Source: a virus
Lineage: Duplodnaviria > Caudoviricetes
Strand: one strand, 5' to 3'
DNA length: 64,000 nucleotides
IMG/VR virus record: IMGVR_UViG_3300030098_005649
Shown: positions 4,375 to 25,328 of the stretch, one piece after another
How the letters are laid out: each line of letters opens with the position of its first letter
Numbering within the stretch: the stretch's first letter is position 1
Position numbers and translations under genes: made by a program
The notes under the pieces: model-generated
What the model was told of the DNA's origin: nothing
The model's database searches: none
Seen by the model: the letters and a program-made list of their open reading frames with translations, nothing else

Positions 4375-4626
4375 ATGATAAATTTAAGAGACGACTTAAT
4401 AAGAGCAAGTGAGTCACATTTTTTAGCACACATTGAGAAACATAGAGTCAATGTGGAGAATCTATTAAATAATGCAGTAGGAGTTAGTGAACATTCAGAC
4501 TTGATGGATACGATAGAAAAAGAGCTGGCAATTATTGCTGAGTATGATGATAAACTTGAAACTTTAAAAAAATATTTTCCGACAGAATATAATGGAAAAG
4601 ATACGAAGGAACTTCTAAATGGCTAA
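4375..4626 (+). CDS. Hypothetical protein of a type common in large myoviruses
   Basis: KHRVNVENLLNNAVGVSEHSD...IEKELAIIAEYDDKLE pattern. Confidence 0.55.
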   Translation: MINLRDDLIRASESHFLAHIEKHRVNVENLLNNAVGVSEHSDLMDTIEKELAIIAEYDDKLETLKKYFPTEYNGKDTKELLNG

Positions 4627-6028
4627 GAAAAAAATATTATTATTATCAGACGACTTGAGAATGGCTTCTGGTGTTGGTACGATGTCAAAAGAATTTGTTA
4701 TGGGAACTGCTCATCATTTTGATTGGTATCAGATTGGTGGTGCTATCAAACATCCTGAAGAGGGTAAGATATTTGATATATCTGATGATGTGAACAAGGA
4801 ACGAGGTATCAAAGATGCAAATGTAAAGGTTCAACCAATTAGTGGTTATGGTAATCCTAATTTACTGAGAGGAATTTTGTCAGTAGAAAAACCAGATGCT
4901 ATAATGATTTATACAGACCCAAGATTTTGGGTTTGGTTGTTTGAAATGGAACACGAAGTACGACAAGAGATTCCTATCTTCTATTATAATATTTGGGATG
5001 ACTTACCTTATCCGAGATGGAATGAAAACTATTATGAGTCTTGTGATTTGATTATGAATATTTCAAGACAGACTGTGAACATAGTCAATCAAGTTTGTCA
5101 AAGAACACCGAGAACTGAGAAGGATTCTACATACATACCACACGGAATAAACGAAGAACTTTTCAGACCATTATCTGATGAAGATACCAAAAGTAAAAAG
5201 TATACTGAATTTGTATCCAAGATAAACTCAAGGGGTAAAAAAGATTTTATCATTCTTTACAACAATAGAAACATCAGAAGAAAATTACCTGGTGATACTA
5301 TATTGGCTTATAAACATTTCTGTGACCAATTACCAAAAGAAGAGGCTAAGAAATGTTTGTTGATTATGCACACCAATCCTGTAGACAATAATGGAACAGA
5401 TTTACCAGCAGTTGTGGATGAATTGTGTCCAGACTACGATGTATTCTTCTCGCATGTCAAACTATCTACTGAGGAATTGAATTATTTATATGGAGTTTCG
5501 GATGTTACAATCAATATGGCATCAAATGAAGGATTTGGACTTGCTACTGCAGAATCCCTAATGAGTGGAACACCAATTATTGTAAATGTTACAGGTGGAT
5601 TACAAGACCAATGTGGATTTACAAAACAAGTTATAAATAATGATGGTAGTGGATATACAAATGAATTACTTACCGTTGATGATTATACTAAAGAATGGGG
5701 TTCTAACCACGATGGTAAATATCAAGAGTGTGGAGAGTGGGCATTTCCAATATTTCCAGCCTGTCGTTCACTTCAAGGTTCACCACCAACTCCGTACATT
5801 TTTGATGACAGATGTAGATTTGAAGATGCAGGAGATAAGTTGAAAGAGGTTTATGATTTACCTAAAGAAGAAAGAGTTCGTAGAGGATTATTGGGTAGGG
5901 AGTTTGTTTTGAGAGAGGACATTGGTATGTCTTCAAAACATATGAATGAAAGGTTCATAAAAGATATGGATTGGGCTTTCGAGAACTTCAAACCAAGAAA
6001 ACAATTTGAATTATCAGAGGTTATATAG
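4619..6028 (+). CDS. Glycosyltransferase, GT4 family
   Basis: YIPHGI, EGFGLATAESLMSGTPII. Confidence 0.85.
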   Translation: MAKKKILLLSDDLRMASGVGTMSKEFVMGTAHHFDWYQIGGAIKHPEEGKIFDISDDVNKERGIKDANVKVQPISGYGNPNLLRGILSVEKPDAIMIYTDPRFWVWLFEMEHEVRQEIPIFYYNIWDDLPYPRWNENYYESCDLIMNISRQTVNIVNQVCQRTPRTEKDSTYIPHGINEELFRPLSDEDTKSKKYTEFVSKINSRGKKDFIILYNNRNIRRKLPGDTILAYKHFCDQLPKEEAKKCLLIMHTNPVDNNGTDLPAVVDELCPDYDVFFSHVKLSTEELNYLYGVSDVTINMASNEGFGLATAESLMSGTPIIVNVTGGLQDQCGFTKQVINNDGSGYTNELLTVDDYTKEWGSNHDGKYQECGEWAFPIFPACRSLQGSPPTPYIFDDRCRFEDAGDKLKEVYDLPKEERVRRGLLGREFVLREDIGMSSKHMNERFIKDMDWAFENFKPRKQFELSEVI

Positions 6029-23148: not shown

Positions 23149-24112
23149 AGTAGCATTTTTTAGTGAGATGGGATTCACGAGTAAAGTCACTCGTGAACAC
23201 GCTAATATGAGAACAGAATTTGCATGGTTTTGTGCACTTGATGCCGACCATTATCCATTATCAGAAGATGTTGGAGAGGGTTGGAATAAAGATGGTATGG
23301 GTGAATATGATTTTGGAATAGTAATCATACCAAAGAATTACATACCATTCAAAATGGATAACATAAAAAGGATGTGTAAAAAAGTTGGATTTATGCAAGA
23401 AGGTCCAAGTTGGTATTTTCAAGACCTACCATTTGCAGAACAAATTCATATGGTAAATAATATGACTTCTGCAGATTTTATATTTGCACATAATGATAGA
23501 GATGCAAAATACTATGAAGGTCTTTTAGGTAAACCAACTTTCATAAACCCAACACTTATGATAACAGATTTGTTAGATGACTTGCCACATAAAGATAAAG
23601 ACGATAAAGTATTGGTAGGTGGTAATTTTGTCAGATGGTATGGTGGTTGGAATTCTTTTATAGTTGCAAGAGATTTAGGAGTACCAATTTGGTTACCAAG
23701 TATGGGTAAGATGAACGAACAAGAAAAATATTTTGAAGAGGTCAATCATTTACCTTATATGGATTGGTTTGGTTGGATGAAATCAATACGAGACTTCAAG
23801 TACGCAGTTCATTTGAATCCAAATACAATCGGTGGTACATTTTATTTGAATTGTGCGTATTGGGGAATACCTTGTGTTGGAAATAAACATACCAATACAC
23901 AATGGAAATGTTTTCCAGAAACATCAGTAGAACCAGATGACTTATTAGGAGCAAAAAAACTTGTAAAGAAGTTACGAGACAATAAACACTTCTATAATTC
24001 TGTATCAAAACAGGCAAAATATAATTTTAATAAACATTTTGGGGAAGAAGTATATATTTATATAATGAATAGGAGATTCGATGAAATCAATAAGTTACAT
24101 ACTACCAAGTAG
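23120..24112 (+). CDS. Putative GT-B glycosyltransferase
   Basis: C-terminal GGTFYLNCAYWGIPCVG resembles the GT4 nucleotide-binding region. Confidence 0.5.
   Translation: MKTLEKPKHKVAFFSEMGFTSKVTREHANMRTEFAWFCALDADHYPLSEDVGEGWNKDGMGEYDFGIVIIPKNYIPFKMDNIKRMCKKVGFMQEGPSWYFQDLPFAEQIHMVNNMTSADFIFAHNDRDAKYYEGLLGKPTFINPTLMITDLLDDLPHKDKDDKVLVGGNFVRWYGGWNSFIVARDLGVPIWLPSMGKMNEQEKYFEEVNHLPYMDWFGWMKSIRDFKYAVHLNPNTIGGTFYLNCAYWGIPCVGNKHTNTQWKCFPETSVEPDDLLGAKKLVKKLRDNKHFYNSVSKQAKYNFNKHFGEEVYIYIMNRRFDEINKLHTTK
24055..24062 (+). promoter_or_regulatory. TATTTATA motif, putative late promoter
   Basis: Copy 19 nt upstream of the GT2 start at 24081, inside the 3' end of the upstream CDS. Confidence 0.35.
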
Positions 24113-25328
24113 AAATAATCTAAAATATCTAAAACAGGCATACGAAAGTATACGAAAGAACTCTTCACTACCATATGAAATTTGTATCGCGAGTGATGCA
24201 AGTACGGATGGTACGGTTGAATGGGTTCAAAGTATAATGAAAGAAGATGAGAATGTAAAACTTCATATCAATGAAGGTCCTGAGAGACTTGGACATACTA
24301 TATTATACGATACACTAATAAATGAATATGCAACAAATGATATTGTTATGATATTTCACGCGGATATGTATCTAACACCCAATTCAGATAAAGAAATTGA
24401 TAGACTATTAGAAAAGGGAAAAGTAGTATCATTCACAAGAATAGAACCACCACTACATCCTGATGGGCCAGAGAAAATATTATTAGACTTTGGTATAGAA
24501 CCAGAAGAGTTCAAAGAAGAGGAATTATTAAAAACGGTGGAAGATTTACAGACAGGAAGGGATGGAATCAAGTATGGCCCTCTCTTATTGAATCACGATA
24601 GAACCAATGGTATATTCGCACCTTGGGCTATATATAAAGAGGACTTTCAATCTATCGGTGGACACGACCCACTCTACGCTCCTCAATCAAAAGAAGACTC
24701 TGATATATTCAATCGTTTCAAACTAAATGGTTACGAGTTTATACAAACTTGGAAAGGATTTGTATATCATATGACTTGTAGAGGTTCACGATTCAAAGAT
24801 GGGGCCATACGAAATCCTAGCGGACAAGTTTTTATGAGAAATAGAGAATCGGATGAGTGGTTGAAACAGAATGAAAGAAGTACAAGAAATTTTGTTCGTA
24901 AATGGGGACACTTAGTAAAACACGATGAAAAATTACATCCTATCATTCCACCAAAATATAATGTTGGTTTTGTGGTAGAGAATTGTAACTATGAATTTCT
25001 AAGAGAATTAGAGCCGTGGTGTGATAACATATATGGTGATTGGGTTGGACATAAAGGTATTTATGTAAACAAATACATTGAGGATGAACAACCAAATACT
25101 CAGTTTGATTTGAGTAAAAGAATTAGAACACAACATACTAATCCAACAAATAACATCGTGATTAGATTCGATTGTAGTAAAGTTACACAACAGAGTTTCG
25201 ATATAATTGTAAATTTATCAGAGATACTACAAGAAAGTGCAGAGTTAGGTACTATGGAATTAGACATATTCAACTTTGAAATAAAGTCTTTGAAGACATA
25301 TGAAAAGGATTTGATTGTATGTCAATAA
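24081..25328 (+). CDS. Glycosyltransferase, GT2 family
   Basis: SYILPSRNN, IASDASTDGT, IFHADM, IGGHDP, EDSD. Confidence 0.85.
   Translation: MKSISYILPSRNNLKYLKQAYESIRKNSSLPYEICIASDASTDGTVEWVQSIMKEDENVKLHINEGPERLGHTILYDTLINEYATNDIVMIFHADMYLTPNSDKEIDRLLEKGKVVSFTRIEPPLHPDGPEKILLDFGIEPEEFKEEELLKTVEDLQTGRDGIKYGPLLLNHDRTNGIFAPWAIYKEDFQSIGGHDPLYAPQSKEDSDIFNRFKLNGYEFIQTWKGFVYHMTCRGSRFKDGAIRNPSGQVFMRNRESDEWLKQNERSTRNFVRKWGHLVKHDEKLHPIIPPKYNVGFVVENCNYEFLRELEPWCDNIYGDWVGHKGIYVNKYIEDEQPNTQFDLSKRIRTQHTNPTNNIVIRFDCSKVTQQSFDIIVNLSEILQESAELGTMELDIFNFEIKSLKTYEKDLIVCQ

Follow-up and report, generated by a model that had tools for sequence, protein, structure and literature searches.

A phage-inherited island of soluble glycan enzymes with a conserved scaffold and a swappable sugar cassette

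Why a tailed phage should carry a ~21-kb run of glycan genes, complete with sugar-nucleotide enzymes of its own, and yet encode nothing there that could export a finished glycan is the question raised by the IMG/VR virus record IMGVR_UViG_3300030098_005649 (Duplodnaviria; Caudoviricetes). We analyzed a 64,000-nucleotide stretch of this record, hereafter the window, in which an earlier note made from the letters alone had delimited the island at 4619–25328 and had considered virion, DNA and host surface as its possible targets. The best explanation of our results is that the island is phage-inherited, fully cytoplasmic and built in two layers, a conserved scaffold and a swappable central cassette. 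As to its target, we tentatively favor the phage's own proteins, most likely those of the virion.

The region 4619–25328 holds 24 open reading frames (ORFs) of at least 80 amino acids, all on the + strand. The true unit extends slightly further, from a 64-aa ORF at 4162 to an 80-aa ORF that stops at 25851, and forms a single co-directional, translationally coupled chain of ~27 ORFs on the + strand in which each ORF starts -32 to +2 nt from the preceding stop. The only apparent exception, a gap of 178 nt, is taken up by a 71-aa ORF (16756..16971) that overlaps both of its neighbors. A hydropathy scan detected no hydrophobic segment in any ORF of 4162–25328, and the most hydrophobic among the window's + strand ORFs of at least 50 aa, a 311-aa protein at 57026–57961, has four. 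The island therefore lacks Wzx, Wzy, a priming transferase and an ABC permease. Specifically, an initiating polyprenyl-phosphate sugar transferase of the WbaP/WecA type has neither a Pfam match nor a hydrophobic segment to represent it in 4162–25328; no + strand ORF of at least 50 aa in the window approaches the 10–14 membrane segments of a Wzx flippase or a Wzy polymerase; and for a Wzm permease/Wzt ATPase pair the island offers no ABC or ABC-2 Pfam match and no membrane protein. The Gtr seroconversion cassette (GtrA flippase, GtrB bactoprenol glucosyltransferase and GtrC membrane transferase) is not present in the island either, whose GT2 proteins are soluble and without the C-terminal membrane anchor. 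Likewise, no membrane, priming, flippase, polymerase or ABC component was found among the ORFs annotated in the flanks, nor among the matched or annotated pieces of 25+ related phage loci, in which the remaining ORFs were not scanned. The earlier description of one operon-like glycan unit without export, priming or polymerase genes is thus confirmed by ORF chain, hydropathy and Pfam; as an argument against a surface glycan, however, the missing exporter is incomplete, since the host could export the products of soluble enzymes.

Five glycosyltransferases (GTs) of the island exceed Pfam cut-offs, namely those starting at 4619, 6029, 8305, 21422 and 24081; with two further probable GTs and two leads, the earlier count of about ten GT-like genes is a fair upper estimate. 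The scaffold opens with GT4-a (4619..6028; this and all features below are on the + strand), a retaining GT-B enzyme that matches PF00534 with 28 bits against a cut-off of 26.4. GT4-a is 51% identical to glycosyltransferase gp181 of Flavobacterium phage immuto and 52% identical to its counterpart in Microcystis phage Mel-JY01, and it has at least 8000 metagenome homologues at E≤1e-10, with most of the 120 listed being 61–67% identical. Its AlphaFold2 (AF2) model has a pLDDT of 80. The best PDB match is B736L of chlorovirus NY-2A (3oy2; 18% identity), both by sequence (E 1.9e-10) and by fold; an uncharacterized Rickettsia GT ranks second among structural neighbors, and those further down are mostly MshA, BshA, GlgM, sucrose-phosphate synthase and methylmannose-polysaccharide mannosyltransferase. 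GT4-b (6029..7318; PF00534, 35.8 bits) shares 44% identity with immuto glycosyltransferase gp180 and 47–52% with proteins of marine phage contigs, and the first GT2 (8305..8958; PF00535, 56 bits) shares 43% with immuto gp178. The distal part of the scaffold includes a probable GT-B (23120..24112), whose family profile weakly matches BshA (E 0.1) and which is 37–42% identical to proteins in phage contigs and 26% identical to an immuto 'GDP-mannose-dependent mannosyltransferase', and a last GT2 (24081..25328; PF00535, 57 bits; 49% to immuto gp169, 62–68% in phage contigs). The fifth firm enzyme is a GT8 (21422..22153; PF01501, 28.2 bits against a cut-off of 24.3; 25–34% in ~19 phage contigs). 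Upstream of it lies a probable GT (19835..20590) that resembles GT-A enzymes or nucleotidyltransferases, with Glyco_tranf_2_3 at 22.8 bits against a cut-off of 27 and weak NTP_transferase matches. The two leads are a GT9-like 379-aa protein (15620..16759) without a Pfam or NCBIfam match, whose Atlas neighbors are viral hypothetical clusters, one of them with PF01075 on 30% of its members, and a GT-A-like 334-aa protein (22144..23148) from virus-only clusters with a 41% homologue in the related contig L003.

Directly after GT4-b, the scaffold encodes a zinc-ribbon protein of an uncharacterized family (7321..7821; 28% to immuto gp179). Of its conserved cysteines, C8, C37 and C40 are kept family-wide, and C11 and C22 are invariant in the closest relatives too. 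The family comprises 519 representative clusters in the protein library, every one of them stand-alone and ~150–190 aa long; two distant homologues lie on contigs shorter than 2 kb. The AF2 model has a pLDDT of 95, for which no credible fold relative was found (Foldseek against the PDB, E≥0.28; VIA, best Z 4.3), and matches in the AlphaFold DB are unnamed relatives only. A predicted complex of this protein with GT4-b scored 0.09 (mark 0.32), a value that informs neither for nor against binding.

A scan of viral contigs with the island's C-methyltransferase as query returned 25 loci, two of which are near-identical to the window. Some 20 others share with it, in the same order and at 25–68% protein identity, GT4-a, GT4-b, two small proteins, GT2, GT8, a block of C-methyltransferase, cupin, FdtA-like, RmlD-like and aminotransferase genes, the GT-B-like gene, the last GT2 and a short-chain dehydrogenase/reductase (SDR). 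The scaffold itself, with a nuclease, a small ORF, GT4-a, GT4-b, the zinc-ribbon protein and GT2 at one end and the GT-B-like protein, an SDR and the final GT2 at the other, recurs in more than 25 marine phage contigs, and the flanking order of methyltransferase, ClpP, DUF1599, nuclease, SLOG, small ORF and GT4-a is kept in Tara and other marine contigs. The central cassette, by comparison, varies between contigs, close relatives included, and 10 of the 24 genes are restricted to the window's own strain group or found in at most one or two sampled relatives. In agreement with the earlier note, these comparisons show that the island is not a captured host O-antigen locus: phages inherit its scaffold, which keeps a fixed place in their genomes. 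We also looked for synteny with a host locus and for phage-specific clades: in a maximum-likelihood tree of C-methyltransferases, 19 phage sequences form their own clade (97/94), sister to a SAR11 clade (100/99), and the SAR11 single-cell genomes, which hold the nearest bacterial homologues found, have only that gene and the neighboring reductase in common with the phages. The bacterial sample was drawn with two peptide patterns only, which biases it towards this SAR11-only picture and means that it does not name the host. In SAR11 (L029–L055, e.g., L033:9237–11194) the RmlD-like reductase and the 3-C-methyltransferase form a divergently oriented pair, 39–49% identical to the phage genes. The contig L028 (NHIV01000032.1), labeled 'MAG: bacterium TMED198', carries the DUF1599, nuclease and SLOG flank and the glycan scaffold in the same order, and is clearly phage DNA binned as a bacterium.

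The scaffold is also found, syntenic and at 26–52% identity, in the cultured phages immuto and Mel-JY01, whose recorded hosts belong to different phyla (Bacteroidota and Cyanobacteria). In immuto, which was recorded on Flavobacterium strain LMO8 and has T4-like portal and capsid genes, the island at ~48.0–60.0 kb begins with a PD-(D/E)XK nuclease (39%) and a 60-aa ORF, continues with GT4-a, GT4-b, the zinc-ribbon protein, GT2 (51, 44, 28 and 43%) and other sugar enzymes, and closes with the GT-B (26%), an SDR (45%) and the last GT2 (49%). At ~11 kb it is shorter than the 21 kb in the window, and its cassette differs: it holds WecE-like aminotransferases, a methyltransferase and an acetyltransferase-like 'pilin glycosylation protein', but no C-methyltransferase, E1 or sulfotransferase. 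In Mel-JY01 the island is shorter and follows that phage's own genes for a DNA polymerase and a PD-(D/E)XK nuclease, and Rhodothermus phage RM378 has a GT4-a homologue at 27%. Since the scaffold is shared by phages of different host phyla, the acceptor of the inner transferases would be a conserved one and not a strain-specific O-antigen.

The island's sugar-nucleotide enzymes, as named in the earlier note, are borne out by Pfam, NCBIfam and PDB matches, and together they outline what may be made. A host nucleoside diphosphate (NDP)-hexose would be converted to an NDP-4-keto-6-deoxyhexose by a 4,6-dehydratase-like SDR (12631..13545; 45% to an immuto nucleotide-sugar epimerase, 47–65% in phage contigs), whose relatives sit at the distal island end. 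On one route, an NDP-hexose 3-C-methyltransferase of the TcaB9/KijD1 type (8960..10183; Pfam Methyltransf_13/23/14; KijD1 and TcaB9 at E 1e-79 to 1e-74), an RmlC/WbuC-like cupin that is a sugar epimerase or isomerase (10176..10598; 57–61% in ~20 phage contigs) and a short RmlD-like 4-ketoreductase (13941..14669; 52–56% in phage contigs and 39–43% in SAR11 genomes, there beside the C-methyltransferase) would yield a 3-C-methyl-6-deoxyhexose. On a second route, an FdtA/QdtA-like 3,4-ketoisomerase (10595..11071; PF05523, 125 bits) and a QdtB-like aminotransferase (14662..15627; PF01041; best PDB match QdtB) would yield a 3-amino-3,6-dideoxyhexose; the aminotransferase is shortened in its N-terminal half and retains the pyridoxal phosphate (PLP) lysine (YPTK versus YPAK in the alignment). 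To these the strain-specific cassette would add three further activities. An E1/RfbH-type, pyridoxamine phosphate-dependent NDP-4-keto-6-deoxyhexose 3-dehydrase (16938..18266; NCBIfam RfbH, 358 bits against a cut-off of 423), the entry to a 3,6-dideoxyhexose, matches Yersinia E1 (3bcx) at E 1e-72, has the conserved histidine in place of the PLP lysine and retains a cysteine-rich WGRDCYC stretch, which we take to be the E1 iron-sulfur cluster region. A 2-oxoglutarate (2OG)-Fe(II) oxygenase of the 'sporadic carbohydrate cluster' type (11052..11714; TIGR04324, E 8e-11, below cut-off) is missing from most relatives. The sulfotransferase (19093..19848, probable start at residue 6), which the earlier note had also listed, is supported by language-model features (Atlas, 0.97) and predicted structure (TM 0.83 to Sulfotransfer_3 clusters), not by Pfam, and has a P-loop-like GTGRCGTRG close to its N-terminus. 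The variable cassette also contains a GalE-like SDR, an epimerase or dehydratase by its Pfam and NCBIfam matches (11711..12634). In this scheme, whose products and order of steps are those that the gene assignments would imply, the scaffold GTs would attach an inner glycan, conserved like its acceptor, and the remaining GTs would add the variable outer part.

Promoter motifs bear on when these enzymes would be made. A late-type promoter candidate, the motif TATTTATA, lies at 4128..4135 inside an AT-rich repeat, 27 nt before the first ORF of the unit, and a second copy (24055..24062) lies 19 nt before the last GT2; the motif also precedes the homologous small ORF in L028 and in immuto. In immuto, 23 of the 30 coding-strand copies of TATTTATA are situated 5–45 nt before an ORF start, against 1.6 expected at random positions. 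Genes with a copy 11–31 nt in front of them include those for terminase, portal, sheath, tube, baseplate hub, tape measure and tail spike; a copy also precedes the small ORF that heads the island, and none was found before the marked replication genes. An early promoter, TTGACTTGTAT...TTATTCGTATATT, occurs at -1427, 25848, 31367, 31618, 31989, 34478, 34920 and 51676 and nowhere in the island; the copy at 25848..25876 (TTGACT-N17-TAACTT with the extended consensus) marks the start of the next unit exactly at the island end. Within the island, TTGACW-N16-18-TANNNT has two matches only (10890 and 21965), both without the extended consensus, and generic sigma-70 and terminator scans performed no better than shuffles. 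Expression of the island is thus likely to be late in this phage and in immuto, as far as motif positions can tell. The early consensus TTGACTTGTATnGT..TTATTCGTATATT is long and nearly invariant at unit starts, and a very similar sequence precedes GT4-a in Mel-JY01. The region before the conserved operon has the look of a promoter swap; an AT-rich repeat precedes the small head ORF in all versions, and its TATAT repeats are a possible operator (window 4100–4356; L064:5730–5987; L056:6020–6238; L060:11930–12000).

Contigs from RNA libraries (four metatranscriptome libraries, two studies) match GT4-a, GT4-b, the zinc-ribbon, C-methyltransferase, HhH-GPD and GT8 genes and the ORF at 22144 at 99–100%. 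These are scattered pieces of 150–270 nt at depth 2–6, in which DNA carry-over is possible and from which neither a gene ranking nor transcript ends can be read, and they weakly suggest that the island may be transcribed in nature. That its ORFs are intact and translationally coupled, and that RNA-library contigs match it at 99–100%, speaks for a working operon. One RNA-contig joint that skips 13893–21008 was not used, as one side of it amounts to just 21 nt at 90% likeness.

Among possible targets, the phage's own proteins, most likely virion proteins, are the one to which we give the most weight, at a little below an even chance. Their glycosylation would take place in the cytoplasm while virions are assembled, much as giant viruses and mycobacteriophages do it. 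This agrees with the full absence of membrane parts, with a scaffold that is conserved in phages of different host phyla and with the promoter motif of virion type in both this phage and immuto. We also count in its favor that the early-promoter consensus is absent from the island and is back right after it, and the chlorovirus GT that is GT4-a's best match by sequence and fold may lend it weak support. Several observations weigh on the other side. The island follows replication and nuclease genes outside the virion-gene block, and in immuto it is at least 20 kb from the structural blocks. Ser/Thr-rich acceptor tracts were absent from the + strand ORFs of immuto (bar a few small annotated genes), of the window and of the 29 kb upstream, a set that does not include the phage's own structural genes. 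The more distant marine contigs L064–L067 and Mel-JY01 have an early-type TTGACT-N17-TATAT promoter in place of TATTTATA, so that late timing cannot be taken as a rule. At its end the island is coupled to a gene for an Mpo1-like membrane protein, which is lipid-related; close relatives have swapped cassettes, as competition over host receptors would bring about and as is less obviously expected of a virion coat; conservation of the scaffold could also be explained by an acceptor universal among hosts, for example a lipid-linked GlcNAc or the lipid A core; and the glycan is known in all these phages from genes alone. Remodeling of the host envelope, which we rate as rather unlikely though well worth weighing, would have the soluble GTs add sugars, at the inner membrane face, to a host acceptor that is lipid-linked or a lipid A core, with host MsbA, Wzx or ABC exporters and ligases or oligosaccharyltransferases displaying the glycan on lipopolysaccharide (LPS) or lipooligosaccharide, capsule or surface glycoproteins, possibly phage-encoded pilins, and so blocking superinfection or the adsorption of progeny to debris and to cells already infected. 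Published work interprets such clusters in this way (PMC7029224, PMC7824862, PMC3037559). The 3,6-dideoxyhexose of E1, 3-amino and branched 6-deoxyhexoses and sulfate are classical surface-antigen components, GT8 and GT9-like enzymes typically serve in assembly of the LPS core, a process that needs no dedicated exporter, and a cassette that differs even in close relatives fits receptor-driven diversifying selection; the C-methyltransferase/reductase pair in SAR11 genomes, the coupled Mpo1-like protein and the early-type promoter before the island in relatives point the same way. However, more than 25 islands of at least 20 kb revealed no priming transferase, flippase, ligase or membrane protein in those of their parts that were matched or annotated, and all of them would have to depend wholly on host priming and export and to share a universal acceptor. 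The phage seroconversion systems established by experiment use, to our knowledge, membrane proteins. Moreover, the scaffold is kept in phages that infect Bacteroidota and in phages that infect Cyanobacteria, two groups with different LPS cores, and a virion-gene-type motif heads the island here and in immuto.

Sugar hypermodification of DNA, in which the GTs would build a glycan on a modified base after replication and thereby block host nucleases, is quite improbable. Phage GT clusters can place mono- to trisaccharides on 5-hydroxymethylcytosine (bioRxiv 10.1101/2023.12.21.572611), the island comes directly after genes for DNA methyltransferase-like proteins, a DUF1599 protein, a PD-(D/E)XK nuclease and a SLOG protein, and an HhH-GPD protein and a 2OG oxygenase are encoded inside it. 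Yet DNA of immuto, a phage with the same scaffold, consists by liquid chromatography with UV and tandem mass spectrometric detection of dA, dC, dT and fdPreQ1 in place of dG, with no sugar-modified base (bioRxiv 10.1101/2023.04.13.536721), and we disfavor DNA as the target for this reason. In addition, the neighboring methyltransferases are of the N6/N4 type; a near-identical 109-kb contig, covering part of the genome only, has no Tet/JBP (PF12851) or thymidylate-synthase-like hydroxymethylase (PF00303) match; the HhH-GPD gene is an insertion that can be done without, and the family to which the oxygenase matches is a carbohydrate-cluster one rather than Tet_JBP; 8–10 GTs and three deoxysugar routes go far beyond any known DNA glycan; and a GmrSD-like nuclease domain is encoded ~15 kb downstream. 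Another cytoplasmic acceptor, with a product that is soluble (a glycoconjugate or polysaccharide) or is carried by host proteins or by phage proteins outside the virion, appears unlikely as well. All enzymes are soluble, an FkbM methyltransferase is fused to GTs at 57964, and beyond ranks 1 and 2 most fold neighbors of GT4-a act on small soluble acceptors or cytoplasmic polysaccharides; but GT4 fold neighbors do not predict acceptors, there is no apparent benefit to the phage, and cassette hypervariability suggests a glycan that is exposed and recognized. Finally, non-functional 'stuffer' DNA kept for headful packaging, a possibility raised for cyanophage LPS clusters (PMC3037559), is hardly credible given that every ORF is intact and translationally coupled, catalytic residues are retained, protein-level conservation of 26–68% extends across divergent phages, cultured ones included, GT4-a has its thousands of metagenome homologues and island pieces occur in RNA libraries.

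Clusters of this kind have been published before. The earlier note had judged the scale closer to giant viruses than to typical phages, which is not supported, as similar clusters are described for P-SSM2 and S-SSM7 (PMC3037559), jumbo cyanophages (PMC7824862), pelagimyophages (PMC7029224) and S-SCSM2R, with 13 GTs (PMC12801897). Like the 'LPS' clusters of marine T4-like phages (P-SSM2, S-SSM7, S-SCSM2R and the host-recognition clusters of pelagimyophages), the island spans tens of kb, combines SDR and cupin NDP-sugar enzymes with several GT families and no dedicated export, varies in content among related phages, is accompanied by a second block adjoining tRNAs and phoH, and has its function inferred from genes. 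Unlike them, going by their published descriptions, it belongs to another phage lineage, has a defined scaffold, shared with immuto and Mel-JY01, at a fixed site after a PD-(D/E)XK nuclease and, in the window, brings 3-C-methyltransferase, E1 3-dehydrase and sulfotransferase chemistry. With the capsid glycans of chloroviruses and the fibril glycans of mimivirus it shares virus-encoded nucleotide-sugar pathways and many soluble GTs without host export machinery; those viruses (Nucleocytoviricota) infect eukaryotes and their virion glycans have been demonstrated by experiment, whereas ours is a tailed phage that infects a bacterium, and its glycan is predicted from genes. Of the giant-virus likeness one concrete point thus stands, at family level only, in GT4-a's match to chlorovirus NY-2A B736L. 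In mycobacteriophages, according to Freeman et al. 2023 as cited in PMC12801897 and PMC12619734, virions are O-glycosylated by soluble phage GTs in the cytoplasm; such a system would be in keeping with a promoter motif that the island has in common with virion genes. These phages differ in having 1–4 GT genes beside capsid or tail genes and C-terminal acceptor extensions, as opposed to 8–10 GT-like genes with their own sugar pathways far from virion genes. DNA hypermodification clusters (methyltransferase, 5mYOX and GT; Pyle et al.) resemble the island in having several GTs, said to be related to LPS enzymes, and DNA methyltransferase genes lie near the island too; they differ in that the 109-kb contig yielded neither a C5-methyltransferase nor a TET-type oxygenase and that immuto DNA is free of sugar-modified bases. 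What is new here is that the scaffold is tied to two cultured phages, that the promoter motif was tested in immuto, that the literature provides an argument against a DNA target, that E1, 3-C-methyl and sulfate chemistry occurs in such a cluster, and that it includes an abundant zinc-ribbon family without a detectable fold relative.

The window has a G+C content of 33% and almost every gene on the + strand. Its left part encodes, in order, a ClpP-type protease, a methyltransferase-like protein, a DUF1599 protein ('nucleotide modification associated' family), a PD-(D/E)XK nuclease and a SLOG-domain protein; an exonuclease is also present in the window, and methyltransferases near the island match PF01555 (N6/N4 type). 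The 29 kb upstream, read off the near-identical 109-kb IMG/VR contig (59% of the genome by CheckV estimate), encode a UvsX-like recombinase, a DnaB-like helicase, ribonucleotide reductase, a family B DNA polymerase and DNA methyltransferase-like proteins. Given this set of recombination, replication, protease, methyltransferase, nuclease and SLOG genes, we assign the source to a large T4-like phage with a T4-like backbone. No match to the T4 major capsid and portal families was found in four long related records, and a nucleotide search of the phage collection gave one match only, of 660 bp at 73%, in a 642-kb uncultured phage. Some 14–16 kb past the window end, a 640-aa protein (L063:76–1998) carries a GmrSD C-terminal nuclease domain (24.4 bits, barely above the cut-off) and adjoins a 505-aa DNA methyltransferase-like protein. 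The GmrSD family takes in enzymes that cleave sugar-modified hydroxymethylcytosine DNA.

Several smaller genes complete the chain. The conserved 64-aa ORF at its head (4162..4356), whose homologues head the island in L028, L064–L067 and immuto, shares with them the pattern KLTSVK...F(T/S)LQKLVNR; a faint Pfam RHH_10 match (E 0.11, L028 copy only) makes it a candidate regulator that possibly adopts a ribbon-helix-helix fold, and it may be the operon's own regulator. It is followed by an 83-aa ORF (4375..4626; 59% to a homologue in L028). A 165-aa protein conserved in the marine clade (7811..8308) has no Pfam or PDB match, and PDB profile searches with the two small conserved proteins gave none. 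A small HhH-GPD (endonuclease III-like) protein (13542..13940; PF00730, 29 bits; TIGR01083, E 1e-7) is a gene-sized insertion: the segment 13550–13938 is present in the window and in L001 and exactly missing from the 97%-identical L002, with a 10-bp overlap at the junction. Neither a 282-aa protein (18263..19111) nor a 281-aa protein (20580..21425) has a family match, the latter having a weak tblastn match to the GT8 homologue of L019; with Pfam at E up to 5, no match was obtained for the ORFs at 18263, 20580, 22144, 15620 or 7811. Past the last GT2 and translationally coupled to it lies a 97-aa Mpo1-like/DUF962 membrane protein (25319..25612; PF06127, 97 bits) with one hydrophobic segment, which was not found in the related phage loci. 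Mpo1-like/DUF962 proteins are a 2-hydroxy fatty acid dioxygenase family. The chain's last ORF, of 80 aa (25609..25851), has a homologue at the island end in L015.

Glycan genes also occur elsewhere in the window. A GT9-like protein (41468..42721; PF01075, E 9e-4, below cut-off) adjoins tRNA-Ala and tRNA-Cys and is a paralogue, at 40% identity, of the GT9-like protein that starts at 62296 (62296..64000 in the window; 1044 aa when complete in the near-identical contig, where PhoH is next). The latter belongs to a second glycan block (57026–64000 and L063:14463–17597) in which a 4-TM protein (57026–57961) directly precedes a 1330-aa fusion of GT2, GT4 and FkbM methyltransferase (57964..61956), followed by a DUF6165 protein, the GT9-like protein and then PhoH. 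The island, 41468–42721 and 57964–64000 together come to ~28 kb, or 44% of the window, slightly short of the half that the earlier note had estimated.

Sugar and GT clusters fill a tenth or more of some marine phage genomes, and their purpose has been debated since the first cyanophage sightings of 2005–2010. The cluster described here is a heritable scaffold with a swappable sugar cassette, not a random capture from a host. Because the same scaffold and promoter motif are present in the cultured pair of immuto and LMO8, and the scaffold in a Microcystis phage, the choice between virion, host surface and DNA is open to ordinary bench methods. It is possible, though we would advance it only tentatively, that the scaffold is the virion-glycosylation machine of very abundant marine and freshwater T4-like phages, that many ocean myoviruses bear strain-variable glycans of branched, dideoxy, amino and sulfated sugars, and that the zinc-ribbon protein selects the acceptor, as an accessory factor of a new sort. 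A glycan located on virions would change the view of how marine phage particles adsorb, decay and are recognized; if it is on the host, a lytic phage would be rebuilding the cell surface with soluble enzymes alone.

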